Source: Escherichia phage vB_EcoP_PAS61 | Direction: 5' to 3' (one strand) | DNA length: 39,287 nt | Sequence record: OQ921333.1 | Part shown: piece by piece, positions 295 to 33,098 of the stretch | Layout: each line of letters opens with the position of its first letter | How positions within the stretch are numbered: position 1 is the first letter of the stretch | Position numbers and translations under genes: made by a program | Notes under the pieces: model-generated | Told to the model about the DNA's origin: nothing | What the model saw: only the letters and a program-made list of their open reading frames with translations | The model's database searches: none

Positions 295-1551
295 GTGCTT
301 ACCGATACAAAATTAAAAAACCTCAAGCCGCAGGACAAACTGTACAAGGTCTCCGATCGTGACGGGCTGTATGTAGCTGTGCTTACGTCAGGAACGGTCT
401 CGTTTCGCTATGACTACCGTATCAACGGTCGCCGCGAAACACTGGTAATCGGGCAGTATGGGCGTGACGGTATCAGTCTGGCAGAAGCGCGAGAAGAACT
501 GATTGCTGCAAAGAAGCTGCTTAAAGCAGGCCAGTCGCCGGCTGCGGCTAAACGTGACGGTATCAAAAAGATTCGTGGTGCCGAGACGTTTGCGGTACAT
601 ACCGACAGTTATATGAAACACGTCATCCTGGCTGACAGTACCCGCGCAATGAAGCAGTCGGTGATCGACCGTGACATACTTCCGGTTCTTGGCAACAAAA
701 TGATGGCTGAAATTACCACATCGATGGTTCGTGATTTGTGTGACCGGATTGTCGAACGCGGTGGCCGTGCAACAGCAGTACAGGCCAGGGAGATCATCAG
801 CAGCGTATACCGTCACGCCAATGACCGTGGTCATGGTTTGTTTAATCCTGCGGCTGACATTAAACCTTCGTCTATCGCCATATTTAAACCACGAGAGCGA
901 ACACTGACACCAGAAGAAATTGGCCTGTTCTTCCGCACGCTGGATGCCATTGGTGCTATGGGCACTATGAAAATGGCTTTAAAGCTGGTGCTTATCACTA
1001 TGGTTCGTAAAGGCGAATTCACTAATGCAACGTGGGACGAAATAGATTTTAAAAAATGGACATGGACAATTCCTTCAGACCGCATGAAGGGAAGCCGGGC
1101 GCACGTTATTTACCTGCCTAAACAGGCACAGGATATATTGGTTGGGTTGCAGATGTGCGCTGGTGGAAGTGAATATCTGGTTCCTGGTCGTTACAATTTC
1201 CGGAAGCCATTATCTAATGCCGCGCTGAACTCTCTGATCGACAGAACGGTGAAAATAATAAATGAAGATGGTGAGCATATTCAGGACTTCACCGTACACG
1301 ATATGCGCCGTACAGCAAGTACGTTGTTGCATGAGGCTGGTTATCCTTCAGACTGGATTGAAAAGGCTCTGGCACATGAGCAGAAAGGTGTGCGCGCCGT
1401 ATATAACAAAGCGGAATACGCCAGACAGCGCGCCTACATGTTGCAGCAGTGGGCCGATATGATTGATTCCTGGATTAACGGGGAGCATACGGATCTGATT
1501 CCGTTCTCCCCGTCGAAGTTTGAGAGGTGGATGGAAGACAGTAATAAATAA
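295..1551 (+). CDS. int: Tyrosine site-specific integrase (P4-like family), GTG start
   Basis: 418 aa ORF; N-terminal LTDTKLKNLKP...YKVSDRDGLYV motif typical of P4-type integrases; C-terminal HDMRRTASTLL...Y catalytic region; located at the prophage end. Confidence 0.9.
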   Translation: MLTDTKLKNLKPQDKLYKVSDRDGLYVAVLTSGTVSFRYDYRINGRRETLVIGQYGRDGISLAEAREELIAAKKLLKAGQSPAAAKRDGIKKIRGAETFAVHTDSYMKHVILADSTRAMKQSVIDRDILPVLGNKMMAEITTSMVRDLCDRIVERGGRATAVQAREIISSVYRHANDRGHGLFNPAADIKPSSIAIFKPRERTLTPEEIGLFFRTLDAIGAMGTMKMALKLVLITMVRKGEFTNATWDEIDFKKWTWTIPSDRMKGSRAHVIYLPKQAQDILVGLQMCAGGSEYLVPGRYNFRKPLSNAALNSLIDRTVKIINEDGEHIQDFTVHDMRRTASTLLHEAGYPSDWIEKALAHEQKGVRAVYNKAEYARQRAYMLQQWADMIDSWINGEHTDLIPFSPSKFERWMEDSNK

Positions 1552-2213: not shown

Positions 2214-2860
2214 GCTGCACGCTCCCGCCCCTGGTTGTCTATTGGTGACACCGGAGCATTGCTGAATGCATTTGTTAATCCGCCAATATCCAACGCGTAT
2301 CCAGGGTGTAGTTGCACTGCCGGGTCTTCGCACTGATTACCCCAAACATCGAAGCCATGAGACGTCTGGCGGGCGAACAGTTCAATGCGAGAAACATCGC
2401 CTAACAATTGCACAAGTTTTTCACGAACGACATCTGGTTTTCTTGAATGCTCAAGCCGCGGTGCGGTAAATGACTGAACGATCCATGCATTAATGCGTGG
2501 AGGTAGTTTTCCCTTTACTGCAAACAGGCAATCTTCACTATTGGCGCGAGTCATGTGTCCCATACCCATAACCAGTTTATCTGGTTGTCGACTACCACAT
2601 TTTATCCACGTGAAGCCCTTCATGGTCATCAGACGGAATCCCCAGGCTTCAACAACTTTTAGCGCTTCGAGTGGTTGTGTTGGCACCCACCACATGGCCA
2701 ACAGACAGTTTTCATCGGCCAAATCCCACACAGGAAGGCGGCAGATGTCCATCACACTCATAACCGGATATTTAAAACTGGCACCGCGATTACCATCTGC
2801 GGCTTTGTCCCGGTATACCCAGGGTGGATCTGCATAGATTAGTGTGTATTTCTTAGTCAT
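2210..2860 (-). CDS. MT-A70 family N6-adenine DNA methyltransferase
   Basis: 216 aa; DPPW motif (IYADPPWVY) characteristic of MT-A70/Dam-like N6-adenine methyltransferases. Confidence 0.8.
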
Positions 2861-3152
2861 AAACCACCCCGCAACATCCTATACCGCTATAGTCTCCACG
2901 GCGAAGGCCGTTACCTTTTGTGATACATTGGTCCCTGCGAACCGCGATCCTTGCACGCTCAACATCACCAGAAGCAACATCCATACACTGAAGCCAAAGG
3001 TGAGCGGCAATGCGGAACTGCCCTTTTTTCTCTCTTTCAATCGCGCGTTTTTCGATCTCTATCGCCGCAGGAGTAACGGCGACAATCTTTGACGGACTGC
3101 GCATTGAAACCTTATTCATGTGATATTTTTCAAGTCGGCTTAACTTTCTCAC
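2853..3152 (-). CDS. Hypothetical protein (early-left operon)
   Basis: 99 aa ORF overlapping the methyltransferase start by 8 nt; GTG start with GAGG upstream; no recognisable motif. Confidence 0.4.
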   Translation of the reverse strand: MRKLSRLEKYHMNKVSMRSPSKIVAVTPAAIEIEKRAIEREKKGQFRIAAHLWLQCMDVASGDVERARIAVRRDQCITKGNGLRRGDYSGIGCCGVVYD

Positions 3153-3261: not shown

Positions 3262-3510
3262 TCATGCAGCGTTGCTCACGGGACGATATACACGTTGCTG
3301 AACAGGAGGTTTTTTACCCTGGAACTCTGCCGGGCTTGCTGCCTGACGTTCATCAAGCCAACGCTCAACTTCGTCACGGTTCCATGCGCAGCGTTTGTCA
3401 GTGATATACCAGCGTTTAGGAAATTCCCCTGCGCGCTCCATACGGTCGATAGTGCTCCATGACAGTGGCACCACCGCCAGGAGTTCCTTCTTACCTAATG
3501 CACCTTTCAT
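3262..3510 (-). CDS. AlpA-family HTH regulator / excisionase-like protein
   Basis: 82 aa; LSWSTIDRMERAGEFPKRWYITDKRCAWNRDEVERWL resembles AlpA/Xis-type winged HTH proteins. Confidence 0.65.
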   Translation of the reverse strand: MKGALGKKELLAVVPLSWSTIDRMERAGEFPKRWYITDKRCAWNRDEVERWLDERQAASPAEFQGKKPPVQQRVYRPVSNAA

Positions 3511-5863: not shown

Positions 5864-6448
5864 TTATTGTTTGTTTTTTTCGTTCTGGTTGATGACAAAT
5901 TCAATGTAACTTTCGATCTTTGCTTTCTCGGTTTCGGGTAACAATGCGTAGCGCGAGCGATCATAGTTGATGGTCGCAGGGTCGTGCGGGTGAATCAGTA
6001 ATTCATAGCCGTGACGCCCGAATGCGGATGCAACATTCTCCAGGGTGGAAATGGAAACGCTGACCTCATTGTTTAACAGGCGGCTGATTGTCACCTGGGC
6101 TACGCCGGATGCGCGGTGAAGTTTTCCCTGTGTTGAAAGGTCGCGGCTTTCGCTCATCCAGCGTTCCAGGTTGTGAGCCGCCAGCTGGCCAATGTCGCTT
6201 GGGCCGACAGGCTGAAAACCTTCCTGAGAAAGCGAGCGATCGATATCAAGCCAGTTACGGGGTTTATTGGCGGCAGCTTCAATTTTTCGCGCAACCTGGT
6301 CGCCGATAACCTTCTTGCCAAGAGCCCAGCGGTTTACCAGATTTGCCTGAGTTCCAAGTTTTTCTGCCATCCGCGTCTGAACACCATTGAATTCACGGTC
6401 GATCAAGTCGTTGAGATTTTGCCTGCGGACGTCCTGGATACTTTTCAT
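5864..6448 (-). CDS. Putative prophage repressor (CI-like role) with two helix-turn-helix regions; no obvious LexA-like S24 peptidase domain
   Basis: 194 aa; HTH-like segments GVQTRMAEKLGTQANLVNRW and GKLHRASGVAQVTISRLLNNE; divergent from a Cro-like gene across an operator-rich intergenic region. Confidence 0.55.
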   Translation of the reverse strand: MKSIQDVRRQNLNDLIDREFNGVQTRMAEKLGTQANLVNRWALGKKVIGDQVARKIEAAANKPRNWLDIDRSLSQEGFQPVGPSDIGQLAAHNLERWMSESRDLSTQGKLHRASGVAQVTISRLLNNEVSVSISTLENVASAFGRHGYELLIHPHDPATINYDRSRYALLPETEKAKIESYIEFVINQNEKNKQ

Positions 6449-6590: not shown

Positions 6591-6602
6591 CAGGCAATAG
6601 CT

Positions 6603-6833
6603 ATGAGCGATAACGGACATTTCGATTTCAAAAAGCACTGGCTTGCACTTACTCCGGATGAGCGTGAAGCCTTCGCACAGGAAGCCGGAACGACGAGTCA
6701 CTATATCCAGACTCACTTAACAGGTAAGCGCAAAATGCCAGGTAAAGTATTGATGAATGGGCTTTTTAAAGCCTGTAAATCAAGACAATGGTTGCGCTCA
6801 AAAGCAGAACTGGCATACTTCTTCTACTCATGA
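6603..6833 (+). CDS. Putative Cro-like early regulator (position-based call)
   Basis: 76 aa ORF transcribed divergently from the repressor immediately after the operator region; weak HTH-like segment. Confidence 0.4.
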   Translation: MSDNGHFDFKKHWLALTPDEREAFAQEAGTTSHYIQTHLTGKRKMPGKVLMNGLFKACKSRQWLRSKAELAYFFYS

Positions 6834-6983
6834 TATCCAGCCACAACCCTCTGTAGACCGCCATCCGGCGGTCTTTTCATATCTATTCGCACCTCAAAGG
6901 TAATAAAAAACCAAATCTGGTTGATCTTTTTTTTGTGTCAGCACAAAATAACCGTAATCCCAATACTAATAACAGGGCTTACC

Positions 6984-7184
6984 ATGGAAATCATTACACG
7001 TATTGATGCCGCAAAGCGCGGACTTAAACGCTACTACACCGGAAAACCATGTAAGCACGGACATGACAGTGAACGCTGGGTTTACAACGGACACTGTGTT
7101 GAGTGCACCATGGAATCAAACCGTCGCATCAGGGCAGAGATTAAGCAGATCATGATTAATTCCTCCCCACAACATTCAAGCTGA
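6984..7184 (+). CDS. Small zinc-ribbon protein (CxxH...CxxC), possible early regulator
   Basis: GKPCKHGH...NGHCVEC motif; start moved to MEIITRID ATG. Confidence 0.45.
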   Translation: MEIITRIDAAKRGLKRYYTGKPCKHGHDSERWVYNGHCVECTMESNRRIRAEIKQIMINSSPQHSS

Positions 7185-7199
7185 TAGCGGAGATTAATC

Positions 7200-8015
7200 A
7201 TGAGCAGACATGCAACAGATTGGGCCTGGGAGACAGATCCAGGTAGCTCGTCATTAAAGCTCATACTGCTCTCGATGGCTGACAGAGCCGATGAATATAA
7301 CCTCTGCTACCCCAGCATAGAACGCCTCGTTAAAGACACCTGCTTGAATAAAAAAACCGTACAGGCCGGGCTTATATCGCTCATGAAAATGGGGCTTATT
7401 TCAGATACCGGAGAGAGAAAGGGAGCGACGAAAAGAGTGCGGGTTTTCTCTCTTAATATAACCAAAAAAGGGAACATTAAAGGCAACCTAGATGGGTGTA
7501 ATGAACCCGAAAACGGTAATGTTCCCAAAAACGGGAATATACCCAAAAACGGGATGTTGAATGATCCCAAAAACGGGATGTTGAATGATCCCAAAAACGG
7601 GATCCAGAACCAGTCATATAACCAGTCATTTAACCAAGAGAGGGAGAGCAGGACAAAAACCGGGGATTCTGTGCCTCATGACCCCGGCGCAAACAACGCC
7701 GTGATGAATAACTTTGTTCCTCCTGGTGGGCCAGGGCAATTAGGCAAATTTGTCATGCATGAACAATGGCAGCCATCAGATGACTTTCTTCGGAAAAGCT
7801 CATTGCAGGGAATCTACCTGGACAGTCTGCCAACGGCACAGGAACTTGCAGAGTTCAGAATTTACTGGATGGCTGAGGGTAAGGCATACCATCAGGCACA
7901 GTGGGAGCAGAAGCTGGCAAGGCGGCTGCAGATTAGCAGACAGAAGCAATCAACATTACCTGATAACAACGTTCCGCACTGGAACAGCCCTGAAGCATGG
8001 GAGGATTTCTTGTGA
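7200..8015 (+). CDS. Replication initiator (lambda O-like role) with N-terminal HTH domain; contains origin iterons
   Basis: 271 aa; N-terminal HTH-like region; internal PKNG repeat encoded by DNA iterons; directly coupled to a lambda P-like gene. Confidence 0.65.
   Translation: MSRHATDWAWETDPGSSSLKLILLSMADRADEYNLCYPSIERLVKDTCLNKKTVQAGLISLMKMGLISDTGERKGATKRVRVFSLNITKKGNIKGNLDGCNEPENGNVPKNGNIPKNGMLNDPKNGMLNDPKNGIQNQSYNQSFNQERESRTKTGDSVPHDPGANNAVMNNFVPPGGPGQLGKFVMHEQWQPSDDFLRKSSLQGIYLDSLPTAQELAEFRIYWMAEGKAYHQAQWEQKLARRLQISRQKQSTLPDNNVPHWNSPEAWEDFL
7506..7602. repeat. Putative origin of replication: five iterons CCC(A/G)AAAACGG(G/T)A spaced 18-24 bp, including a perfect 24-bp tandem repeat (7551-7574 / 7575-7598)
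   Basis: Direct repeats at 7506, 7524, 7542, 7566, 7590 read from sequence; location inside the initiator gene as in lambda ori. Confidence 0.7.
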
Positions 8016-8797
8016 ACAACGTTTTTACCGCGATACAAAACCGTGACGGAGAAGCCCTTTCTCGCATGTCAGGTTATGAGCATCAGTACACCAACAATGA
8101 CAACGTGGTGAACATGTCAGCAGAGAGGCTTGTTGATGCCCTTTTCAAACAGCTGAAACAACTGTTTCCGGCGGCAGTGGTAACCAACCTGAAGACGCCA
8201 GAGCAGGAAGTTGCTGCAAAACAGCAGTGGATTGCTGCGTTTGCCGAAGGGGGGATCCGAACCCGTGAACAGGTTTCTGCTGGTATGCGCCACGCCCGCG
8301 CCAGTGAATCTCCGTTCTGGCCGTCGCCAGGGCAATTTATCAAGTGGTGTAAAGACAGCAAGATGGTTCTTGGCGTCACCATTGACGATGTGATGGCGGA
8401 GTTTCATCGGTACAGCAAGGAAAAAAGTTTATATCCTGGTGGTCCCGAAAGATTCCCGTGGCGGCATCCGGTTATGTACTGGGTCGTATGTGATACCCGC
8501 CGTGCAATGTATCAGCGCCAGCTTAGCGAGATTGAAGTTGAGAAACACGCGCGCAGGCTGCTCGATGATTGGGCGAAAAAGGTGGCTTCCGGACAGCAGA
8601 TACCCGATCCGGTGATCAGCATACAGGCAAAGCCAGAGCCCATGAGTACACCTCCGGACACAGGGAGAGACGTTTACCATCCACCAGGGCGAAGTTTCGG
8701 GTGCATGCCTAACGCCGCCACCCTTGGGGGAATAACACCGGCGCAGTGGCTGATGGAGGAATACAGGCGGGGAAAGGCGGCAGGATTTATCAAGTAA
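8012..8797 (+). CDS. Replication protein P-like (helicase loader)
   Basis: Similarity from memory to lambda P (FPA...Q.EV...QW..AF.E.GI.T.EQV.AGMR.AR....PF.PSPGQF..WC); GTG start overlapping upstream stop (GTGA) with GGAGG RBS. Confidence 0.75.
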   Translation: MNNVFTAIQNRDGEALSRMSGYEHQYTNNDNVVNMSAERLVDALFKQLKQLFPAAVVTNLKTPEQEVAAKQQWIAAFAEGGIRTREQVSAGMRHARASESPFWPSPGQFIKWCKDSKMVLGVTIDDVMAEFHRYSKEKSLYPGGPERFPWRHPVMYWVVCDTRRAMYQRQLSEIEVEKHARRLLDDWAKKVASGQQIPDPVISIQAKPEPMSTPPDTGRDVYHPPGRSFGCMPNAATLGGITPAQWLMEEYRRGKAAGFIK

Positions 8798-8834
8798 TAC
8801 CAGCGCGATAGCGCATTTTTTTACGCCTCAACAA

Positions 8835-8911
8835 TTACCTATAAGGTAACAAAATATTCTAAACTCTATTGATTTCGTGTCTTATGTGGTTTTTAATTAC
8901 CTTAGAGGTAA
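8835..8911 (+). promoter_or_regulatory. Promoter/operator region: TTACCTATAAGGTAA (8835-8849), -35 TTGATT (8869-8874), spacer containing TTATGTGGTT, -10 TTTAAT (8892-8897), TTACCTTAGAGGTAA (8897-8911) overlapping the RBS of the downstream gene
   Basis: Motifs read directly. Confidence 0.45.
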
Positions 8912-8914
8912 ATC

Positions 8915-9262
8915 ATGAGAAAACAGATACAGGCTCTTGGTCGACTCAAAACAGGCCAGATGAACAAAACAGAATCTGCGTATTGCCAGCACCTTGAGCA
9001 GCGTAAACGTGCAGGGGAAATCGCCTGGTATCGATTCGAGGGTATCAAGCTGCGGTTAGCTGACAACACGTTCTATACGCCCGATTTCGCTGTGATGCTC
9101 GCCACCGGAGAGATGGAACTGCACGAAGTGAAAGGGGGATTCTGGACCGACGACGCCAGGGTGAAAACCAAAGTAGCCGCAGATCAGTATCCGTTCCGAA
9201 TCATCGGGGTAACGGTTAAACCAAAGAAAGCAGGTGGCGGCTGGAACATCGAAGAGTTCTGA
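8915..9262 (+). CDS. DUF1064-like phage protein (possible nuclease/resolvase-like)
   Basis: 115 aa; YCQHLEQRKRAGEI..YRFEG..L....FYTPDF pattern recalled as DUF1064. Confidence 0.5.
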   Translation: MRKQIQALGRLKTGQMNKTESAYCQHLEQRKRAGEIAWYRFEGIKLRLADNTFYTPDFAVMLATGEMELHEVKGGFWTDDARVKTKVAADQYPFRIIGVTVKPKKAGGGWNIEEF

Positions 9263-9323
9263 ATCGACGATCTTTTTAGTTATCAATGTAATCAATAAGT
9301 TATGTGGATAAGCGAGGGTAAAG

Positions 9324-9971
9324 ATGGAAAGTAATATCAAAGGGTTAGTTGCCGCCGGGCATGAGATGGCTTCGGAACTGAAAGCAGAATGTGGTGCCGT
9401 TGATATGCGCAGTATGGCAAAGCTGATCAGCGATTTGGCAACGCAACTGGAAGTGCAACTGGTGCGTGCTAATGCGCTGGCCGAAGACCAGCAGAAAGCG
9501 ATTGAGTCAATTAAGCAGGCTGATTCAACTGTTAAGTTGGCGCACGAGAAGTTTTCGGCGCTTGCGGCGGAGAATGAACTGGCTCGTAAGGCAGTTAAGG
9601 CATTCTGCGATGTTGTTGGCGACAACACCGAGGTTATCGCTGAGGAGGTTGGGCGAGATGGCGTTCTGGTTATTTTGAAGGCCATGAAGGCAACAGGAAA
9701 TATGTCAGCCACCGACGCTTTCCTGGCTGAAATTCGTGCGGAAGCACGCAACGAGGGGATTAACTATACCGCCAGCCGTCTTGCTGCTGCGTTCAATCAC
9801 GGATTTATCAATAAGTCTTTGCGTGAAGTTTTCGACGTTACACGCATGATTTTGTCAGCGAAAGAAGAGTTGGCTAATGAAGCGCATCCGATTGATGGCC
9901 TGTCTGGTGAATATGCGGAGAAATCCCTTGAAGAATGGGCGGAACAGATTCGCAAAGGAGGCAGCCAGTGA
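9324..9971 (+). CDS. Hypothetical protein
   Basis: 215 aa ORF, Ala/Glu-rich, no recognised motif. Confidence 0.5.
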   Translation: MESNIKGLVAAGHEMASELKAECGAVDMRSMAKLISDLATQLEVQLVRANALAEDQQKAIESIKQADSTVKLAHEKFSALAAENELARKAVKAFCDVVGDNTEVIAEEVGRDGVLVILKAMKATGNMSATDAFLAEIRAEARNEGINYTASRLAAAFNHGFINKSLREVFDVTRMILSAKEELANEAHPIDGLSGEYAEKSLEEWAEQIRKGGSQ

Positions 9972-10564
9972 GCAAGATTGACTATCAGGCACTGCGTGAG
10001 ATAGCAAAACAGGCAACACAAAGCGAATGGGTCGCATTTATTTCGCCGGGTACTGGTACGTATGCGGTGCATACGCCCGGTGATAAACGATGTGAAGACG
10101 TTATCAAATGGACCGGCTTTGATGGACAGAAAAATGCAGAGAACAACGCTCGTTATATCGCAGCTTTCAACCCTGAAGTAGTGCAGGCGCTGCTGGATGA
10201 ACGGGAATCCCAAAACAAGCGTATTGCAGAACTGGAGAAAAGCGAAGAGCAACTCATTAACGAGCGTGACCATGCTGAGTCTGCTTTAGATGATATGTAC
10301 TTTGCAGCAACCGGTAACAGGCCGGAGTGGAGCAACTGGTTCGGCTTTTCAGATGCTGTCGATGCCGTGGTTGACAGAATTGCTGATTTAGAAGCTAAAC
10401 AGCCATCGCCAGTAGTACCGGAAGGACTGGTTAAAGCAGTGCGCTTCTATGAACAGGTTAAGCGTGAAAATCCGCCAGTCGAAACCGGAGCATGGAAAGA
10501 CGCTGTTGACTGGGTGCTCAAAGAGGCTTGCCAGGTTGTAAACACTGGCATCAAAGGAGAGTGA
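9968..10564 (+). CDS. Ead/Ea22-like phage protein
   Basis: GTG start overlapping upstream stop after GGAGG; coiled-coil central region; family call from memory. Confidence 0.5.
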   Translation: MSKIDYQALREIAKQATQSEWVAFISPGTGTYAVHTPGDKRCEDVIKWTGFDGQKNAENNARYIAAFNPEVVQALLDERESQNKRIAELEKSEEQLINERDHAESALDDMYFAATGNRPEWSNWFGFSDAVDAVVDRIADLEAKQPSPVVPEGLVKAVRFYEQVKRENPPVETGAWKDAVDWVLKEACQVVNTGIKGE

Positions 10565-10565
10565 G

Positions 10566-10757
10566 ATGAACGGACAAATATCAATTGTTCGACCGGGAGC
10601 ATGTGACGATCGCGAGATACGCATGATTATTCGTCTGGCGAGGGGGAAAACAATAACTGCTCTCATTACTCCAGAAAATCTCGCATTAGCATTAACAGGA
10701 AAGTCAGACCTGCCAGTAGAGCTAAAACTGCGAAATGTTGAGATTAAGGTGAAATAG
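10566..10757 (+). CDS. Small hypothetical protein
   Basis: 63 aa ORF tightly packed between neighbours. Confidence 0.45.
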   Translation: MNGQISIVRPGACDDREIRMIIRLARGKTITALITPENLALALTGKSDLPVELKLRNVEIKVK

Positions 10758-10758
10758 C

Positions 10759-11457
10759 ATGAATTCTATTACCAAAGAACGTATCGAATTATTCATTAAA
10801 AATCCGCTTGAAAACGGGCTTACCCGTGGCGAACAAATGGAACTGGCACGAATTGCACTGGCATCACTGGCAGCAGTATCGGATGAACGAGCAGCCTATG
10901 AATTATTTATGGAGAAGCGTTTCGGGGAATCTGTAGATCGCCGCAGGGCGAAAAATGGTGATAGAGAATACATGGCATGGGATATGGCGCTTGGCTGGAT
11001 TATCTGGTGTCACCGCGCCGCCATGCTTCAGGGAGGCCAACCTGTAAACCAAACTTACAACTTGCCAGAATTAATCGAAGGCATGGAAGTTTCCATTGAT
11101 GTAAGCACTTGTGATGCTGATTTAGGTAATCGCTATTTCGGCACCGTCACCGAGGCGTTAGAACTTGATACTGCCAAGAATGGTTACATCCTCCTGGTTC
11201 AGGACGCAGAGCCAAACTTCGATGTAAATGGCAACTCTCCGGTAACTCCGGATAGTTGGATAAGCTGTAGTGAGCGAATGCCAGGCGATGGTCAGCACGT
11301 AATTATTTTATGTGATGGCACATTCGTTCTTTATGCGCAATATCGAGATGGAGAGTTTTTCGATATTGTCCGCAATGGTGATGAATTTTTCGAAACACAG
11401 AGTCGCAATGTAACCGACTGGATGCCGCTGCCAGAACCGCCGCAGGAGATGAAGTAA
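10759..11457 (+). CDS. DUF551 domain protein
   Basis: C-terminal WISCSERMP...DWMPLPEPP pattern typical of DUF551 phage proteins. Confidence 0.55.
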   Translation: MNSITKERIELFIKNPLENGLTRGEQMELARIALASLAAVSDERAAYELFMEKRFGESVDRRRAKNGDREYMAWDMALGWIIWCHRAAMLQGGQPVNQTYNLPELIEGMEVSIDVSTCDADLGNRYFGTVTEALELDTAKNGYILLVQDAEPNFDVNGNSPVTPDSWISCSERMPGDGQHVIILCDGTFVLYAQYRDGEFFDIVRNGDEFFETQSRNVTDWMPLPEPPQEMK

Positions 11458-11741
11458 TGGACTCCTTCGCGAAATATACGATTATTGACTGGATAGCATT
11501 CCTTCAGGTTTTGCTCATCTGGTTTTATATGGCTTACAGGAGTGGACAGTGGATTGTCGATGTAGCCTGTAGCAAGGGATGGCGTTGGTGGAACCGAAAG
11601 AATAAAAAAGCACTGGCATTGGATTCGTTTTACGAAGCATTCAATCTTAACAGCCTTCAGCCTGGTTCTGTCGTTGTAGTCACCACTCAAAGCGGCATGA
11701 CGATACAAATTCACAAGCCAAAGGAGGAAGGTCGTGGCTAA
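11457..11741 (+). CDS. Hypothetical protein with N-terminal hydrophobic segment
   Basis: 94 aa ORF; ATGA-type overlap with upstream gene. Confidence 0.45.
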   Translation: MDSFAKYTIIDWIAFLQVLLIWFYMAYRSGQWIVDVACSKGWRWWNRKNKKALALDSFYEAFNLNSLQPGSVVVVTTQSGMTIQIHKPKEEGRG

Positions 11742-12015
11742 CCTGCAACTTGCCGTCAAAGGTGAATACTTCGATGCCATGATTCGTGGAGAGAAAACGG
11801 AAGAGTATCGCTTGTGTAATGACTACTGGAATAAGCGAATTATGTTCCGCGAGTATGGCCGCCTGATTATCACAAAGGGATATCCGAAGCGCGACGATTC
11901 CAGCCGCAGAATTGATGTTCCGTATGAAGGGTATGAAATCAAGACAATCACACATCCGCACTTCGGCGATAAACCGGTAAAGGTGTACGCGATAAAGGTG
12001 AATATTGATGGCTAA
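11734..12015 (+). CDS. Small hypothetical protein (possibly ASCH-like)
   Basis: GTG start after AGGAGG RBS; weak family resemblance only. Confidence 0.4.
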   Translation: MANLQLAVKGEYFDAMIRGEKTEEYRLCNDYWNKRIMFREYGRLIITKGYPKRDDSSRRIDVPYEGYEIKTITHPHFGDKPVKVYAIKVNIDG

Positions 12016-12346
12016 ATCAGCAGCAGAGCGCAAAGCCGCTCAGAGAGCCAGACAAGCTGCATCTGGTGTGCGTAAGCTGGAAATTGTGCTTGATGCTCAG
12101 GAAATTGAAATGCTGGAGCGTAACTGTGCCACGCGTCGCCCCGGGCGTGCGCCTTACGAATTTGGTGAGTATATAGCGTTACTGATCCGCCAGGATGATG
12201 CACGCGTGCGCGGGCGTATAAAATCGATCAGCAGAAAATGTTGCGGTAAGTGCGGCGAGAGAGTTCCAGTTAATTCATGCCCGTGTAATGGTGACTCGCA
12301 ATGCTGGGTGACTAAAGGCTGGCATGAAACGAAATTAATAGTGTGA
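12008..12346 (+). CDS. Cys-rich zinc-finger protein immediately upstream of the late operon; candidate late-gene regulator/antiterminator (Q-like role)
   Basis: 112 aa; CCGKCGERVPVNSCPCNGDSQC cluster; stop codon overlaps the GTGACATGTCAC palindrome; followed by an intrinsic terminator and then the terminase genes. Confidence 0.45.
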   Translation: MAKSAAERKAAQRARQAASGVRKLEIVLDAQEIEMLERNCATRRPGRAPYEFGEYIALLIRQDDARVRGRIKSISRKCCGKCGERVPVNSCPCNGDSQCWVTKGWHETKLIV

Positions 12347-12395
12347 CATGTCACGAGTAGATTATGCATGATGAATTTGATGGGTTTTGAATACT

Positions 12396-12421
12396 GCCGC
12401 CAACTATGGCGGCTTTATTTT
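12396..12421 (+). terminator. Rho-independent terminator (GCCGCC-AACTAT-GGCGGC + TTTATTTT) between early-right and late genes (tR'-like position)
   Basis: Perfect 6-bp GC stem plus U-run. Confidence 0.6.
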
Positions 12422-12464
12422 GCATGGTACTATTACCACAACGGTAACTATTACCACGGTGGTT

Positions 12465-13061
12465 ATGATGCCTGCTGAACCTAAAACCTATAAACGCAAA
12501 TCAACGCAATTTAAGCCACTAACAGCAATGCAGGAGGCTTATTGCCAGTCATACATCAAAACGCCTGAAAACCAGACTCAGGCAGCGATTAACGCAGGGT
12601 TCTCCCCAAATACAGCGGCAGTTAAAGCCAGTGTCATGATGCGCGATGAACGCATTCAAAAACGGATTGCCGAGTTGATGGAGGAGCGCAACAAACGAAT
12701 GCGCGTCAGTGCTGATTACGTTCTCATGCGCCTGGTGGAGATCGACCAGATGGACGTGATCGACATCCTCAACGACGATGGGAGCCTTAAACCAATCCGT
12801 GAGTGGCCGAAAATCTGGCGCACTACGCTTAGTGGCTTTGATCTGTCATCGACCATCATGAACATGAACGAGGATTCGATAGAGACAATCCTCAAAAAAA
12901 TTAAATGGCCTGACAAGGTGAAGAACCTTGAGCTGATTGGTAAGCATGTTGATGTCAACGCGTTCAAAGAACGTCTGGATGTTAATGTGAATGTGACAAT
13001 TGCTGATCGCATAGCAGCAGCCAGGAAGCGACTCAAAGAACGTCAGGATGGTAATCAGTGA
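12465..13061 (+). CDS. Terminase small subunit
   Basis: Position immediately upstream of and translationally coupled to terminase large subunit; basic N-terminal region; start moved to ATG after the terminator. Confidence 0.65.
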   Translation: MMPAEPKTYKRKSTQFKPLTAMQEAYCQSYIKTPENQTQAAINAGFSPNTAAVKASVMMRDERIQKRIAELMEERNKRMRVSADYVLMRLVEIDQMDVIDILNDDGSLKPIREWPKIWRTTLSGFDLSSTIMNMNEDSIETILKKIKWPDKVKNLELIGKHVDVNAFKERLDVNVNVTIADRIAAARKRLKERQDGNQ

Positions 13062-14533
13062 CAGATACAGCGTTATCTCCTGAAGAGCAGTTGATCGAGG
13101 ATATTGCAGGGTTCACTCACGATCCGCTTGGCTATGCCCTCTATGCGTTCCCGTGGGGGGAAGAGGGGACTGAACTGGCACATGCTACCGGCCCACGTCA
13201 GTGGCAGGCTGATGCGTTCCGAGAGATACGTGATCACCTGCAGAATCCAGAGACGCGCTATCAGCCGCTTATGCTGGCACGCGCTTCTGGTCACGGTATT
13301 GGTAAATCCGCATTCATCTCAATGCTGATCAACTGGGGCATGTCCACTTGCGAGGATTGTAAGGTCGTGGTGACCGCCAACACCGACAACCAGCTACGAA
13401 CGAAGACCTGGCCGGAAATTATCAAGTGGTCGAACCTTGCTATCACGAAAGACTGGTTTACCTGTACCGCTACCGCGATGTACAGCAATGATCCTGGGCA
13501 CGACAAGCGGTGGCGAGCTGACGCAATCCCCTGGTCTGAGCACAACACTGAGGCATTCGCCGGACTACACAACGAGCGCAAACGCATCATCGTGGTATTC
13601 GATGAAGCGTCGAACATTGCGGATCTGGTGTGGGAAGTTGCTGAGGGGGCGCTAACGGACGAAGACACTGAGATTATCTGGGTGGCGTTCGGAAACCCTA
13701 CACGTAACACCGGGCGTTTCCGCGAATGTTTCCGCAAATATAAACACCGCTGGAAAACTGCGCAGATTGACAGCCGGACGGTGGAAGGCACTAACAAACA
13801 GCAGTTGCAGAAATGGGTTGATGACTACGGGGAAGACAGCGACTTCGTTAAAATCCGTGTGCGCGGCATATTCCCTGATGCATCTGAATTGCAGTTTATC
13901 CCTACCGGTCTTACTGATGAGGCAATGAAACGGGTGGTAACCGCTGCGCAGGTTGCACATGCTCCGGTGATAATCGGCGTTGACCCGGCATACTCAGGCG
14001 TTGATGACGCGGTGATATACCTGCGGCAGGGGCTGCACAGTAAGGTGCTATGGACTGGTAACAAGACCACCGACGATCTGATTATGGCGAAGCGTATCGC
14101 TGACTTTGAAGACCAGTATCAGGCTGACGCGGTGTTCATCGACTTCGGTTACGGAACCGGTTTGAAGTCAATCGGTGATGGCTGGGGACGTACATGGCAA
14201 CTTGTTCCGTTCGGCGGTGCGTCCACTGACCCGCAGATGCTTAACAAGCGTGGGGAGATGTTCAACTCATGTAAGACATGGCTGAGGCTGGGCGGCATGC
14301 TGGATGACCAGGAAACTGCAGACGACCTGTCAGCGGCAGAGTACAAAGTTCGTGTGGACGGTAAAATCGTTATCGAACCGAAGGAAGATATCAAGGAGCG
14401 GCTTGGGCGTTCGCCGGGTAAAGGCGATGCGCTACTGCTGACGTTTGCTTTCCCTGTGTCGAAGCGTCTGCGAATTCCTGGGCAGCAGAACCAGCAAGGC
14501 AAGGCCATCACAGATTATGACCCGTATGCTTAA
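13058..14533 (+). CDS. Terminase large subunit
   Basis: 491 aa; Walker A-like ARASGHGIGKS; GTG start overlapping terS stop. Confidence 0.9.
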   Translation: MTDTALSPEEQLIEDIAGFTHDPLGYALYAFPWGEEGTELAHATGPRQWQADAFREIRDHLQNPETRYQPLMLARASGHGIGKSAFISMLINWGMSTCEDCKVVVTANTDNQLRTKTWPEIIKWSNLAITKDWFTCTATAMYSNDPGHDKRWRADAIPWSEHNTEAFAGLHNERKRIIVVFDEASNIADLVWEVAEGALTDEDTEIIWVAFGNPTRNTGRFRECFRKYKHRWKTAQIDSRTVEGTNKQQLQKWVDDYGEDSDFVKIRVRGIFPDASELQFIPTGLTDEAMKRVVTAAQVAHAPVIIGVDPAYSGVDDAVIYLRQGLHSKVLWTGNKTTDDLIMAKRIADFEDQYQADAVFIDFGYGTGLKSIGDGWGRTWQLVPFGGASTDPQMLNKRGEMFNSCKTWLRLGGMLDDQETADDLSAAEYKVRVDGKIVIEPKEDIKERLGRSPGKGDALLLTFAFPVSKRLRIPGQQNQQGKAITDYDPYA

Positions 14534-14584
14534 TCCGCTGGTGGGGATAATGTCGTTGATATCCTCTGATGAGGATAAAACAAA

Positions 14585-14610
14585 GCCAGCTCATCGGCTG
14601 GCTGTTTGTG
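14585..14610. terminator. Bidirectional terminator-like hairpin (GCCAGC-TCATCG-GCTGGC) with U-rich flanks, between terminase large subunit and the antisense moron
   Basis: Stem-loop read directly; adjacent to GTGACATGTCAC palindrome at 14608-14619. Confidence 0.45.
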
Positions 14611-14623
14611 ACATGTCACGGTG

Positions 14624-15046
14624 TTAGAAGGTTATTTTATCGAATGCGGCGTTGATTGCCTTGGCGTCCTGCTCAGCACCAACCACATCAAGTAAAGATC
14701 TTTTACTAAGCACTTCAGCCAGGCATTGTAACTTCATGTTGTATAAGTTTTCGCGCATGTAATCATCATCACTTTTTTCTTTGGCGTATACAGCGCGAGA
14801 AATATCAAACACATTGCCTTTTTCCATTTCAGTTTTCTGCGCTGAAATCCAGTCATGGCAAGTAACTCCTATTCCATGGTCATCGCTAAGCGTTAACCCG
14901 GCAAGTCGCTCACCTGGAATTGCTTCATAAAGCATTTCATTTCCTGCAAAAACACCATAAAAAATTGAGTCATCACCCTGAACAATGCGTACATATTTGC
15001 ACGGCCATTCATTTAGATATTTAGCTAGCATGTCGGCTGTTTTCAT
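14624..15046 (-). CDS. Moron gene of unknown function (antisense to the late operon)
   Basis: 140 aa ORF with balanced composition on the opposite strand between terminase and portal, downstream of a tRNA and an intrinsic terminator. Confidence 0.55.
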   Translation of the reverse strand: MKTADMLAKYLNEWPCKYVRIVQGDDSIFYGVFAGNEMLYEAIPGERLAGLTLSDDHGIGVTCHDWISAQKTEMEKGNVFDISRAVYAKEKSDDDYMRENLYNMKLQCLAEVLSKRSLLDVVGAEQDAKAINAAFDKITF

Positions 15047-15211: not shown

Positions 15212-15288
15212 TGGCGTGGCATGCAGGATTCGAACCTGCGACCAACCGCTTAGAAGGCGGTTGCTCTGTCCGACTGAGCTAATGCCAC
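15212..15288 (-). tRNA. tRNA-Arg (anticodon UCU), phage-encoded
   Basis: Hand-folded cloverleaf: acceptor GTGGCAT/ATGCCAC, D-stem GCTC/GAGC, anticodon stem ACCGC/GCGGT with loop CTTCTAA, T-arm GCAGG-TTCGAAT-CCTGC, discriminator G and encoded CCA. Confidence 0.85.
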
Positions 15289-15610: not shown

Positions 15611-15677
15611 TTACCTGAAAGGTAATAATTCACGCGTTAAATGTCAACCTTCTACGATAAATAAATCATATGTGGTT
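15611..15677. promoter_or_regulatory. Regulatory region upstream of the portal module: TTACCTGAAAGGTAA (15611-15625), TTGACA on minus strand (15647-15642), CATATGTGGTT (15667-15677)
   Basis: Motifs read directly. Confidence 0.4.
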
Positions 15678-15936: not shown

Positions 15937-18144
15937 ATGGCGGAAACAACTAAAGAGCGATTGAACAAACAGTTCGCACAACTTGAAAGCGAGCGTCAGT
16001 CGTTCGAGCCGCACTGGCGCGAGTTGAGTGATTACATCAACCCGCGTGGTTCCCGCTTTCTGACTTCTGAGGTCAACCGTAACGATCGACGCAATACACG
16101 CATTATTGATTCGACCGGGACTATGGCGGCGCGCACTCTCGCCAGCGGCATGATGTCAGGCATCACAAGCCCTGCGCGTCCGTGGTTTCGCCTGGCTACG
16201 CCAGATCCTGAAATGATGGATTATGGTCCTGTTAAGTTGTGGCTCGAGGCGGTGCAGAACCGCATGAACGATATGTTCAATAAGTCGAATCTCTACCAGT
16301 CTCTTCCGCAGTTATACGGAAGCCTCGGCACATACAGCACTGGTGCAATGGCGGTGCTGGAGGATGACGAGGACATCATTCGCACAATGCCATTCCCGAT
16401 AGGCAGTTACTACCTGGCTAACTCACCTCGTGGCAGTGTGGACACCTGTTTTCGCAAGTTCTCTATGACTGTTCGTCAGCTTGTTCAGGAGTTCGGGCTA
16501 AATAACGTCAGCGAATCCGTAAAAAGCATGTGGGAAAGCGGCACCTACGAGAAGTGGATTGACGTGATGCATTCGGTTTACCCGAACATTGACCGCGATA
16601 CATTGAAGCTGGATAGCAAGAACAAGCCATTCAAATCGGTTTATTACGAGGTTGGTGGCGATAACGACAAGTTGTTGCGTGAGTCCGGATTCACAAGCCC
16701 TGCGCGTCCGTGGTTTCGCCTGGCTACGCCAGATCCTGAAATGATGGATTATGGTCCTGTTAAGTTGTGGCTCGAGGCGGTGCAGAACCGCATGAACGAT
16801 ATGTTCAATAAGTCGAATCTCTACCAGTCTCTTCCGCAGTTATACGGAAGCCTCGGCACATACAGCACTGGTGCAATGGCGGTGCTGGAGGATGACGAGG
16901 ACATCATTCGCACAATGCCATTCCCGATAGGCAGTTACTACCTGGCTAACTCACCTCGTGGCAGTGTGGACACCTGTTTTCGCAAGTTCTCTATGACTGT
17001 TCGTCAGCTTGTTCAGGAGTTCGGGCTAAATAACGTCAGCGAATCCGTAAAAAGCATGTGGGAAAGCGGCACCTACGAGAAGTGGATTGACGTGATGCAT
17101 TCGGTTTACCCGAACATTGACCGCGATACATTGAAGCTGGATAGCAAGAACAAGCCATTCAAATCGGTTTATTACGAGGTTGGTGGCGATAACGACAAGT
17201 TGTTGCGTGAGTCCGGATTTGATGAGTTTCCAATTATGGCTCCGCGCTGGGAAGTTAATGGCGAAGATGTTTATGGATCATCATGCCCGGGTATGCTGGC
17301 GCTTGGACCTGTTAAGGCATTGCAGCTTCTCCAGAAGCGCAAGTCGCAGTTGATTGATAAAGCCACCAATCCGCCGATGGTTGCTCCGACTTCCCTCAAG
17401 AATCAGCGCGCCTCCCTTCTTCCTGGCGACATCACGTATATCGATCAGATTACTGGTCAGGATGGTTTCAGGCCTGCTTATCTGGTTAACCCCAGTACAG
17501 CAGATCTGGTAGCAGACATTCAGGACACTCGTCAAATCATTAACAGCGCCTACTTTGTCGATCTGTTCATGATGTTGCAGAACATCAATACCCGCTCGAT
17601 GCCTGTTGAAGCGGTGATCGAAATGAAAGAAGAAAAACTTCTGATGTTGGGGCCGGTTCTGGAGCGTCTGAACGACGAATGTCTTAACCCTCTCATTGAC
17701 CGCGCTTTCTCGATGATGGTGCGTAAAAACATGCTGCCGCCACCGCCTGACGCGATGGAAGGTATGCCCCTGAAGGTCGAATACATTTCCGTCATGGCTC
17801 AGGCGCAGAAGTCTATCGGCCTGTCCAGTCTGGCGTCCACGGTTAACTTCATTGGTCAACTTGCGCAAGCGAAACCAGAAGCTCTCGACAAACTCAACGT
17901 TGATCAGGCGATCGATGCATTCGCTGATATGTCCGGAGTGTCTCCAACCGTCATTGTTCCGCAGGAACAGGTTGAGCAGGCTCGCCAGCAACGGGCACAG
18001 CAACAACAGCAGCAACAAATGATGGCGATGGGGATGGCGGCGGCACAGGGTGCCAAGACGCTAAGCGAAGCTAAAACTTCGGATCCGAGTGTTTTGTCAG
18101 CTATGGCGAATGCAGTTAGTGGTCAGGGTGGGCAATCACAATGA
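15937..18144 (+). CDS. Portal (head-to-tail connector) protein, T7 gp8-like, carrying an internal in-frame 176-codon tandem duplication
   Basis: 735 aa; Gln-rich C-terminus recalls T7 gp8; position after terminase; internal duplicated segment TSPARPWF...LLRESGF. Confidence 0.8.
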   Translation: MAETTKERLNKQFAQLESERQSFEPHWRELSDYINPRGSRFLTSEVNRNDRRNTRIIDSTGTMAARTLASGMMSGITSPARPWFRLATPDPEMMDYGPVKLWLEAVQNRMNDMFNKSNLYQSLPQLYGSLGTYSTGAMAVLEDDEDIIRTMPFPIGSYYLANSPRGSVDTCFRKFSMTVRQLVQEFGLNNVSESVKSMWESGTYEKWIDVMHSVYPNIDRDTLKLDSKNKPFKSVYYEVGGDNDKLLRESGFTSPARPWFRLATPDPEMMDYGPVKLWLEAVQNRMNDMFNKSNLYQSLPQLYGSLGTYSTGAMAVLEDDEDIIRTMPFPIGSYYLANSPRGSVDTCFRKFSMTVRQLVQEFGLNNVSESVKSMWESGTYEKWIDVMHSVYPNIDRDTLKLDSKNKPFKSVYYEVGGDNDKLLRESGFDEFPIMAPRWEVNGEDVYGSSCPGMLALGPVKALQLLQKRKSQLIDKATNPPMVAPTSLKNQRASLLPGDITYIDQITGQDGFRPAYLVNPSTADLVADIQDTRQIINSAYFVDLFMMLQNINTRSMPVEAVIEMKEEKLLMLGPVLERLNDECLNPLIDRAFSMMVRKNMLPPPPDAMEGMPLKVEYISVMAQAQKSIGLSSLASTVNFIGQLAQAKPEALDKLNVDQAIDAFADMSGVSPTVIVPQEQVEQARQQRAQQQQQQQMMAMGMAAAQGAKTLSEAKTSDPSVLSAMANAVSGQGGQSQ
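16163..17218 (+). repeat. Perfect tandem direct duplication, 2 x 528 bp (16163-16690 and 16691-17218), inside the portal gene
   Basis: Nucleotide-level identity read across both copies; the ORF-track translation repeats the same 176 aa. Confidence 0.9.
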
Positions 18145-21021: not shown

Positions 21022-21345
21022 ATGGAACTCGTAAACCTCAAAACCGGCACTGACAGCTACCAGGATGAGAGCGGAGAAACCAGAACTCGCGATGAATACC
21101 CGTGGGGGCTGTGCATCACTCTTAATAACGACACATTGAATAAGCTGAAGGCGCAACCTCAGGGCGTCGGAACAGAAGTGATGATAACTGCAAAGGCTGT
21201 TATTCGAGGCCTGTCTGCCAGAGAAACTGACGATGGTGTTAATCGCAGCGCCGATCTGCAGATCACTGATATGGCGATCGCTCCTGTTTCCGGGGATGTA
21301 GAAAAATCAGCGGCTGAAACTCTGTACGGCAATGGGGGGGAGTAA
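21022..21345 (+). CDS. Hypothetical structural protein
   Basis: ORF with AGGAG RBS directly after terminator. Confidence 0.5.
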   Translation: MELVNLKTGTDSYQDESGETRTRDEYPWGLCITLNNDTLNKLKAQPQGVGTEVMITAKAVIRGLSARETDDGVNRSADLQITDMAIAPVSGDVEKSAAETLYGNGGE

Positions 21346-32666: not shown

Positions 32667-32686
32667 CGTGAGCGTGACATGTCACA

Positions 32687-32712
32687 GGCCGCTTTCGCGG
32701 CCTTTAAATTTA
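32687..32712 (+). terminator. Rho-independent terminator (GGCCGC-TTTC-GCGGCC + U-rich tail) ending the injection operon
   Basis: Perfect 6-bp GC stem plus U-run; GTGACATGTCAC palindrome directly upstream. Confidence 0.6.
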
Positions 32713-32967
32713 CCGGGTTTGTTTTCGTAATTGTTCGGCACAATAGTCGAGATGTGTTTGCAGATCCTGCATAGACATCTGTGAGCTGGTGACGTAGTTA
32801 ATCAGTGCAGTCAGTTCGGCAAGTGGGCCATCGACATTAAATCCATCCTTATCGAGATCCCGGAGTAATTTCATCAAGTGCGATCCATCCACCAGTGACC
32901 TGACGCCTCCCGGCGTGTGAATCCTTTCGGTAAATCCGTCTTCCAGTGGATAGTGATACTGCTGCAT
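32710..32967 (-). CDS. Moron gene of unknown function (85 aa) with its own promoter/operator
   Basis: Start moved to internal ATG (MQQYHYPLEDG) with GGAG RBS; upstream 41 codons of the track ORF run through AT-rich regulatory sequence. Confidence 0.5.
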   Translation of the reverse strand: MQQYHYPLEDGFTERIHTPGGVRSLVDGSHLMKLLRDLDKDGFNVDGPLAELTALINYVTSSQMSMQDLQTHLDYCAEQLRKQTR

Positions 32968-33004
32968 CTTATCTTCTCCATGCAATAACTGTATATTTAT
33001 ACAG

Positions 33005-33098
33005 TAGCAAATAATTTGTTTGCTATCCAGCACGTTTTGCAAATTACCAGAAAGGTAATATCTATTCTTATTCACAGTCTTTCTATCCATATGTGGTT
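33005..33098. promoter_or_regulatory. Regulatory region between moron and tailspike: perfect palindrome TAGCAAA-N7-TTTGCTA (33005-33025), TTACCAGAAAGGTAA (33044-33058), CATATGTGGTT (33088-33098)
   Basis: Motifs read directly. Confidence 0.45.

Follow-up and report, generated by a model that had tools for sequence, protein, structure and literature searches.

In the lambdoid phages lambda, 82, 21 and P22 (gp23), the Q systems (Q, qut/pR' and tR') follow a recurrent order: the last gene of the early-right operon, a site, a short leader, a strong terminator and the late packaging genes. We have analyzed a locus with the same order in Escherichia phage vB_EcoP_PAS61 (record OQ921333.1; the window, in what follows, is the whole stretch of 39,287 nucleotides), in which the last early-right gene encodes a 112-aa protein of the epsilon15 gp49 family and is followed by a palindrome, a strong terminator and the terminase genes terS and terL. 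A sequence-only reading of this DNA had likened the arrangement to Q-pR'-tR'-late gene logic and suggested an uncharacterised late antitermination module; the elements that it listed (open reading frame (ORF), palindrome, terminator, TTACC site, tandem repeat and terminase genes) all lie within 0–3 nt of where it placed them. The layout that it described is real and conserved, and the palindrome is very probably cognate to the protein; its promoter part did not hold up as well, there being one weak and doubtful promoter-like match, and there are three sites per genome. Further points in common with Q are a Cys cluster in the regulator and a gene-next-to-site layout that is compatible with cis-preferential action. 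On the other hand, gp49 has no sequence similarity to Q and is about half its size; its presumptive site is a perfect 12–14 bp palindrome laid over a stop codon; two of the three sites are promoter-less, whereas Q has a single promoter-embedded element; no sigma-70 pause element is demonstrable at the gp49 sites; lysis genes are not downstream; and the gp49 family coexists with a genuine Q in N15.

Several other described systems bear comparison. The operators of the SPC32H/epsilon15 repressor Rep (compare the C1 operators of P1 and the stoperators of mycobacteriophage L5) are palindromic, flank rep, and precede the terminase, portal, tailspike and lysis units; the sites at 12433 and 12451 are members of this set and, contrary to the sequence-only reading, belong to the lysogeny lock and have no part in a late-activation device. 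P2 Ogr, P4 Delta and 186 B are small Cys4 phage proteins that operate a late-gene switch via short symmetric DNA sites, and in a P2-like Yersinia phage a gp49 homologue ends the early operon. However, the Ogr/Delta proteins have a different Cys motif (C-X2-C-X22-C-X4-C) and no homology to gp49, and their sites (TGT-N12-ACA) stand at about -55 of each late promoter, whereas the gp49 sites are found at the 3' ends of units or between cistrons, at no fixed promoter distance. Mu Com, a purely functional analogy, is also a small Cys4 protein with a target at the end of its own gene, upstream of the next ribosome-binding site (as in N15, Chlobot and K303); Com, in contrast, binds RNA and acts on translation, while the symmetry of the gp49 site argues for duplex DNA. 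As functional speculation, we may add RfaH: its ops, too, is a 12-nt DNA element in transcribed regions upstream of long operons or terminators, possibly reused several times per genome, but ops is asymmetric, and it is a NusG paralogue that recognizes it, on the non-template strand; gp49 lacks NusG-like features.

By its sequence, the window is essentially the entire genome of a phiV10/epsilon15-like temperate phage (genus Uetakevirus; an epsilon15-like podovirus), and the approximately 1.1 kb around the locus are 96–98% identical to O157 typing phages 9 and 10, phiV10, TL-2011b and relatives. Among phages of this type are serotype converters of Salmonella, the typing phages of E. coli O157, and prophages. 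In the literature searched, we found no paper on how their late genes are switched on, and the vB_EcoP_ZX5 and PY54/N15 papers are silent on gp49/gp46 and on late control. Our analysis separates the lysogeny lock (the Rep operators) from a second, uncharacterised regulator with a precise candidate DNA site.

A palindrome tied to the stop codon of the gp49-family gene

The motif GTGAC-NN-GTCAC occurs in three exact copies in the window, against about 0.04 expected, and the first of these (PAL1; Table 1) lies across the end of the gp49-family gene. We gathered 174 homologue-encoding loci, using N15 gp46 as a lead sequence, and collapsed them to a set of 74 different protein variants, in 66 of which the palindrome begins one base ahead of the TGA stop (G-TGA-C..GTCAC); in three it is 9 nt past a TAA stop; two are frameshifted gene copies that have the palindrome at the ancestral position; and one record ends at the stop codon. 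Only two variants, those of Vibrio phage K303 (+228) and locus L146 (+269), have a more distant palindrome. The palindrome-bearing clades include epsilon15/phiV10-like podoviruses, N15-like siphoviruses, a P2-like Yersinia myovirus, Pantoea AH07-like phages and several metagenomic groups; across them protein identity falls to 32–45%, and the downstream neighbors are unrelated (terS; N15 gene 47; xis/int; LexA-controlled morons). The last sense codon invariably has G as its third base, even though it encodes different residues (V, L, P, A, M or T), and the eight non-coding bases of the palindrome are conserved, whereas sequence further downstream is not. The flanks are symmetric too (Y-GTGAC-NN-GTCAC-R). 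These counts establish a statistical link between gene and palindrome; from it we infer that gp49 binds the palindrome, which is very probably the cognate DNA site of this protein family. The strict two-fold symmetry, Y...R flanks included, argues for a duplex-DNA site that would be read by a symmetric dimer, rather than for RNA. We did consider the palindrome as an RNA hairpin or nut-like element, and rejected this idea: the arms are invariant without covariation, the flanks are symmetric, and the stem could have at most 4 bp.

Exact copies number three in the window, epsilon15, N15 and K303, four in BUCT554, and one in the Yersinia P2-like phage; copies within a genome mostly share the central dinucleotide. 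Evidence that gene and palindrome are separable comes from E. coli NADC1036 (L179, 641–842), where an ORF of about 65 codons stands between the stop codon of the gp49 homologue, which there lacks the palindrome, and the palindrome itself, which remains beside the downstream leader and terminator. In an Aeromonas homologue (32% identical) there is just a degenerate relic, ATGACATGGCAC, at the stop. It is genetically unusual for a site to be fused, in phages that differ greatly, to the stop codon of its own regulator, and a full-text search for the palindrome sequences found no phage paper that mentions them; the combination of a site in the stop codon with terminator pairing (see below) appears to be undescribed so far.

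The gp49-family protein

The 112-aa protein corresponds to epsilon15 gp49, phiV10 p55 and N15 gp46, and a profile search assigns it over residues 1–111 to phrog_536 (E 1.7e-54, a full-length profile match). The label of this PHROG family, "transcriptional regulator", is itself profile-based only, and the more than 700 family clusters (at 90% identity) all carry the name "hypothetical". No Pfam domain was detected in the protein or in nine diverse family members, nor was there a match in NCBIfam or in the PDB (by phmmer and by profile). In keeping with the sequence-only reading, then, the protein is uncharacterised, unrelated to Q, and smaller: Pfam, NCBIfam and PDB searches detected no homology to Q or N, its PHROG family is not that of Q, and Pfam gave no match to Ogr_Delta.

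In an alignment that includes members down to 32% identity, A6, R8 and R13 are invariant and lie in a basic N-terminal helix; a conserved core, predicted to be helical, consists of E32, L36, R43, R47, Y50, E54 and LLI 58–60; and the C-terminus carries a four-Cys cluster (C79, C82, C91–93 and C99, spaced C-X2-C-X8-10-C-X5-7-C). The AlphaFold2 (AF2) monomer, from a 37-sequence alignment, is weak (pLDDT 61, pTM 0.29), with helices at 5–18, 30–43 and 52–77, an extended segment at 19–29, and the Cys region unmodelled, and Foldseek of this model against the PDB returned only noise (E > 1). Residues 9–48 have a sub-threshold NCBIfam match to the CopG-type "LexA-regulated protein" YbfE (E 0.052; 14 bits against a cut-off of 62). 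A ribbon-helix-helix fold for gp49 remains a weak lead, because the structure, fold, PDB and Pfam searches were uninformative.

Palindrome copies and their terminators

Another key observation to emerge from these comparisons is that the three copies in the window mark the 3' ends of three rightward units and that each is placed a short way ahead, along the direction of transcription, of a strong terminator hairpin: the palindrome-terminator spacing is 41 nt for PAL1 and T1, 1 nt for PAL3 and T3, and 4 nt for PAL2 and a minus-strand hairpin (Table 1). T1 has a folding energy of -14.5 kcal/mol (z = -3.6) and a 7-bp stem with six G-C pairs; as expected of a rho-independent terminator, the G+C-rich hairpin is followed directly by a U-tract (a TTTATTTT tail), and epsilon15 and phiV10 both have T1, with an annotation. 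No strong plus-strand terminator other than T1 and T3 was found between 9 kb and 35 kb. The copy positions are syntenic in epsilon15, BUCT554 and more distant relatives, and the geometry at PAL2 is the same in epsilon15, BUCT554 and loci L160, L146, L147 and L149. The gap between PAL1 and its terminator is 22 nt in epsilon15-type phages and several hundred nucleotides where morons have been inserted. There is a statistical link of palindrome to terminator as well as of gene to palindrome, and the order of early-right last gene, palindrome, strong terminator and terS/terL is kept in epsilon15, phiV10, TL-2011b, 66FD and about 500 E. coli prophages; the gp49-palindrome module as such is present in 637 of 5,426 complete E. 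coli genomes (about 12%).

Morons adjoin all three copies. Between PAL1 and terS, BUCT554 and ST512-KPC3phi13.3 have a LexA-box umuD-like gene. In this palindrome-terS interval, BUCT554 (L007, 2790–3190) and ST512-KPC3phi13.3 (L009, 2790–3115) each carry a moron that has a TTGACT promoter and whose LexA box (TACTGTTTAAATGTACAGTA) is perfect; the BUCT554 moron resembles UmuD/S24 peptidase, the ST512 moron is a different small ORF, and in BUCT554 the terminator ahead of terS is absent. After PAL2, relatives carry diverse reverse genes, and this window a tRNA-Arg (anticodon TCT, 15212–15288, minus strand) in the moron region between terL and the portal unit; nearby are a 140-aa reverse ORF (14624–15046) and minus-strand terminators at 15168–15133 and 15081–15066. 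Rfam found nothing in the intergenic region, its sole match in the window being to a tRNA elsewhere. After PAL3 comes a LexA-controlled ant-like gene. A LexA-box-like sequence (aCTGTatatttatACAGta, about 32988–33006) is upstream of reverse ORF 32710–33090, which is in the position of epsilon15 gp19, with the Rep operator at 33044 adjacent; SPC32H-type phages have a LexA-controlled antirepressor, which this sequence would fit.

More distant phages place the copies differently. N15 (L174) has three exact copies of GTGACTGGTCAC (28550–28561, 33237–33248 and 39269–39280). One is at the gp46 stop, directly followed by gene 47, and another is within repA, at about 620 nt from the repA start. The copy at 28550 stands about 24 nt ahead of the -35 element of the Pa promoter (TTGACG-18-TAGAGT), beyond which come a terminator (28435–28418) and the antirepressor (ant) operon; in N15, gp46 may act on replication or anti-immunity control, to go by these positions. 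In K303 (L176), the copy at 33227 precedes a promoter-like site (33336–33364), a strong terminator (33469–33495) and, directly thereafter, the holin gene. The two other K303 copies fit the terminator pattern less well, as do the N15 copies in repA and at the gp46 stop: the K303 pair are 19 nt ahead of start codons, one of them that of terS, and 4–8 nt upstream of Shine-Dalgarno sequences. A shared 9-mer, TTATACGCG (21303–21311 and 35893–35901), is found 39 and 49 nt upstream of these two copies. We also observed, in AH07-like and related loci (L006, L140–L173), a small hairpin 12–20 nt past the palindrome, between it and xis; it has the form CCNG-(A/T)TGC(A/G)G-CNGG or CCCG-TATGCGG-CGGG, with covariation in the stem, a conserved loop and no U-tract, and could be a processing, pause or protein-binding RNA element.

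The TTACC repeats as Rep operators

The sequence-only reading had included a TTACC site and a tandem CTATTACCAC repeat in its qut-like module; this assignment we withdraw. TTACC-N5-GGTAA, with up to one mismatch, occurs 11 times in the window (eight exact), against 0.67 ± 0.77 in shuffled sequences. Two such sites lie on each side of the gene for the SPC32H-homologous repressor Rep (5730 and 5792; 6504 and 6552), and others before a resolvase-like gene (8835 and 8897), terS (12433 and 12451), the portal unit (15611) and the tailspike (33044), and near the integrase (238). The stretch 12433–12465 thus belongs to a set of multiple palindromes on both sides of rep. The CTATTACCAC copies (12430–12439 and 12448–12457) each consist of a left half-site with three bases of its flank, in two adjacent operators 18 bp apart. 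Moreover, the epsilon15 RefSeq record annotates ATTACC-N5-GGTAAT as "protein_bind: repressor" at positions 12–27, directly before terS, and also before gp3/portal and the tail fibre gene; a second, weaker operator over the terS ribosome-binding site is present in epsilon15, 66FD and BUCT554 also; and N15-like and AH07-like phages keep the gene and the palindrome with the TTACC repeat absent. Because the copies flank rep, are annotated in epsilon15 and are absent from N15- and AH07-like phages, we assign the repeat to Rep and not to gp49: on sequence grounds it is well supported that TTACC-N5-GGTAA and CTATTACCAC are prophage-repressor operators rather than qut, which is known, ordinary biology. 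Among the loci compared there was no Uetakevirus with a different operator motif that would allow a test of operator-repressor co-change.

A second motif, (C/T)ATATGTGGTT, occurs 46–58 nt downstream of Rep operators (8881–8891, 15667–15677 and 33088–33098; about 24750 in epsilon15, L012). It precedes the resolvase-like, portal, tailspike and, in epsilon15, lysis units, and is kept in epsilon15 and BUCT554 while its flanks diverge; it may belong to promoters under Rep control, or be what another activator, such as the PerC-like protein encoded at 2853–3149 (minus strand), acts on. The conserved CATATGTGGTT block, which follows the Rep operators of these units, is absent before terS.

Transcription into terS and terL

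The 46 nt between the T1 tail and the ATG of terS (position 12468) are almost fully taken up by the two Rep operators. Neither a promoter scan nor direct reading found a credible sigma-70 promoter in this interval; the best arrangement is TTGCAT-17-GGTAAC (TTGCGT-17-GGTAAT in epsilon15), from which the critical A at -11 is absent. A promoter-like match further upstream uses the left half of PAL1 as its -35 (Table 1). Matches of that kind are no commoner, indeed fewer, than in shuffled sequence, and its -10 is not conserved, reading AGCGAT in NADC1036; epsilon15-type phages have GTGACA-17-TAAATT. At PAL2 and PAL3 there is promoter-like sequence on neither strand.

With no visible promoter and no CATATGTGGTT block before terS, the terminase unit seems to rely on polymerase that has read across T1. 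For the other late units, separate starts under Rep control are probable: since the portal, tailspike and lysis units come with Rep-operator and motif blocks of their own, at most the terminase unit is clearly read-through-dependent.

We also weighed attenuation by a leader peptide. A mini-ORF in the PAL1-T1 spacer ends six nucleotides ahead of the T1 stem, where a ribosome in the act of terminating would lie over the 5' arm. Its variants include three synonymous changes, five non-synonymous changes and one frameshift (a 1-nt deletion), and epsilon15-type phages, whose spacer is 23 nt long, lack it; given this absence and the frameshift variant, we did not adopt leader-peptide attenuation.

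Read-through and its alternatives

The hypothesis that we favor, while giving it somewhat less than an even chance, is that gp49 controls terminator read-through, a Q-like job done by an unrelated protein. As a first, well-supported layer, Rep on O1 and O2 would lock terS entry in the lysogen, as its operators would at other units. In lytic growth gp49, as the product of the last early-right gene, would build up and bind the palindromes, and RNA polymerase coming from upstream would then pass the adjacent terminators; early-right transcription would thereby be extended into terS/terL, and transcription past the post-gp18 terminator towards the tailspike. The job of lambda Q would thus be performed through several intra-operon DNA sites instead of one promoter-embedded site. 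We prefer this hypothesis because gp49 occupies the timer position of Q as the last early-right gene, because the adjacent terminators are strong and terS has no visible promoter, because the sites lie inside transcribed regions, like the loading sites of elongation factors, and because a strong block is hard to square with the promoter-less genes directly behind the site (N15 gene 47, K303 terS, and the inserts in L058 and Chlobot). At PAL2 and PAL3, the distance from the center of the site to the expected release point is 31–37 nt. The distance from the Q-binding element to the paused polymerase in lambdoid phages is similar; a protein sitting on the DNA could thus touch a polymerase that pauses at the U-tract on its RNA-exit side. 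Antitermination by gp49 is what we infer from these points together. If it is correct, these phages have found a new solution to the problem solved by lambda Q, and the protein and its 12-bp site are a compact, portable part for transcription-unit control.

A number of observations weigh against read-through. The protein has no detectable homology to any antiterminator, and its AF2 model is poor; the site is a perfect palindrome; and PAL2 precedes a minus-strand terminator, so read-through there would give antisense RNA over terL. N15 has its own Q, and its three sites, one of them inside repA, are outside the late region; the Yersinia P2-like phage has a single site, at the stop codon. Promoter blocks of their own, under Rep control, appear to serve the portal, tailspike and lysis units; the distance from PAL1 to the terminator is variable (22–41 nt, or several hundred with morons); and T1 could be leaky enough for the low terminase levels that are needed. 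A wider proposal is correspondingly bolder, and we regard it as rather unlikely: that the gp49/gp46 family forms a new antiterminator class, dependent on a DNA site and without relation to Q, N, RfaH or AlpA, in which the loading site GTGAC-NN-GTCAC within the gene's own stop codon makes a portable cassette, re-loading at several terminator-adjacent sites fuses units into one late transcript, and the cassette is common to podo-, sipho- and myoviruses of Enterobacterales and Vibrio.

The most serious competitor to read-through, although we consider it unlikely, is that gp49 is a boundary factor, insulator or repressor that blocks RNA polymerase, or helps to terminate it, at the ends of units. 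It would then prevent convergent or antisense read-through at the moron and ant junctions, truncate its own 3' end (negative autoregulation) and shut off what lies downstream, while terS and terL would be transcribed by leak-through of the terminator or from a weak promoter. The perfect symmetry of the site is in harmony with this idea, as is the location of two of the three copies at junctions of a convergent late gene with a reverse moron, and of all three at unit 3' ends beside terminators. A protein bound over the stop codon would, we reason, prevent completion of its own mRNA, and in AH07-like phages and Chlobot the site is upstream of xis/int, which would sensibly be shut off late. The idea would also suit the weak ribbon-helix-helix hint, if that is right; most ribbon-helix-helix proteins are repressors. 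Yet T1 and T3 are already canonical strong terminators that need no help, and a block at PAL1 leaves terS and terL without an evident source of transcription; several promoter-less genes lie directly behind the site; and the K303 site 19 nt before the ATG of terS is inside the late operon, so that a strong block there would kill the phage's growth. Were insulation nonetheless the function, it would show how phages wall off morons between late operons.

Improbable in our estimate is that the likeness to Q is a coincidence, with terS and terL under Rep alone (O1 and O2), fed by partial T1 read-through or by a cryptic promoter overlapped by the operators, and with gp49 and its palindrome serving to regulate morons, excision genes or replication. 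Rep operators do stand exactly at the entry to terS, as at other units, and a weak, conserved TTGC(A/G)T-17-GGTAA(C/T) overlaps O1; its putative -10, though, GGTAAC or GGTAAT, lacks the critical A at position 2. The module of gene plus site has unrelated downstream neighbors in other phages, and the N15 sites are in replication and antirepressor regions, both as coincidence would have it; what it leaves unexplained is the three-fold pairing of palindrome with terminator in every epsilon15-like genome. Nor was another candidate late regulator found for the terminase unit: by PHROG, the other early ORFs of the window include no Q-, N- or Ogr-like protein.

A still smaller chance attaches to classical activation, in the manner of Ogr/Delta or Mu C, of an adjacent promoter such as GTGACA-18-CATGAT or N15 Pa. 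Such a role would make use of the promoter-like match that has the left half of PAL1 as its -35, of GTGACA-17-TAAATT in epsilon15-type phages and of the N15 site about 24 nt upstream of the Pa -35, centered near -65, and gp49 is small and Cys-rich like Ogr/Delta. The case against it rests on PAL2 and PAL3, which have no promoter-like sequence on either strand, on the two K303 sites that are too close to a Shine-Dalgarno sequence to leave space for a promoter, on the -10 that is not conserved in NADC1036, and on the lack of Ogr_Delta homology; transcripts from the promoter would, besides, still run into T1. Finally, it is highly improbable that the palindrome is not bound by gp49 but is a host-factor site (it resembles the SlmA site, GTGAGTACTCAC, and all hosts belong to the gamma-proteobacteria, with many DNA-binding proteins in common) or a recombination or module-boundary sequence for the insertion of the morons that adjoin all three copies, since in at least six divergent clades it is this one family whose stop codon carries the site, and the last codon is under selection at its third base, since the central 4 bp depart from the SlmA consensus, and since 12 bp is below the length needed for homologous exchange.

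Table 1. Coordinates of the features discussed (positions in the window; a dot marks a site given no strand)
Feature	Position	Strand	Remarks
gp49-family gene, 112 aa	12008-12346	+	contains CCGKCGERVPVNSCPCNGDSQC
PAL1, GTGACATGTCAC	12343-12354	.	overlaps gp49 TGA stop (12344-12346)
Promoter-like match GTGACA-18-CATGAT	12343-12372	+	weak; -35 is left half of PAL1; 9/12; doubtful
Mini-ORF MHDEFDGF, then stop	12364-12390	+	phiV10-type spacer only
T1, strong intrinsic terminator	12396-12421	+	stem 12396-12413, GCCGCCA-ACTA-TGGCGGC; tail TTTATTTTG
Rep operator O1	12433-12447	.	TTACC-ACAAC-GGTAA
Rep operator O2	12451-12465	.	TTACC-ACGGT-GGTTA, 1 mismatch; overlaps terS ribosome-binding site
terS, small terminase subunit	12468-13061	+	Terminase_2 match, 1e-29
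terL, large terminase subunit	13058-14533	+	
Terminator hairpin and T-run	14584-14603	-	serves reverse moron after terL; plus strand without U-tract
PAL2, GTGACATGTCAC	14608-14619	.	junction of terL and reverse moron
Rep operator before portal/structural unit	15611-15625	.	followed by CATATGTGGTT block 15667-15677
PAL3, GTGACATGTCAC	32674-32685	.	overlaps TGA stop of gp18-like gene, last of structural unit
T3, strong intrinsic terminator	32686-32712	+	hairpin 32686-32703; directly after PAL3
Rep operator before tailspike unit	33044-33058	.	followed by CATATGTGGTT block 33088-33098
Rep, SPC32H-type prophage repressor	5864-6448	-	PDB 5d50, E 4e-42, full length
Integrase	~295-1551		
PerC-like regulator	2853-3149	-	PHROG
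AlpA-like regulator	3262-3507	-	PHROG
Rightward early operon	~6600-12346	+	
Cro-like regulator	6603-6830		PHROG

Other features of the window

A leftward early operon lies between the integrase and repressor genes, and terL is followed by portal, head, tail, tailspike and lysis genes. We also noted a tandem duplication of 528 bp in the portal ORF (15937–18144), whose copies at 16155–16454 and 16683–16982 are 99% identical; the duplicated ORF has 735 aa, against 1680 bp (559 aa) for the portal gene of TL-2011b and 1671 bp for that of epsilon15, and the duplication could be a genuine in-frame event or an assembly artefact. Inside the replication-initiator gene (7200–8015) are five iteron-like 24-nt repeats (7454–7606; consensus GAATNNNCCCAAAAACGGGA), which are probably the origin of replication.

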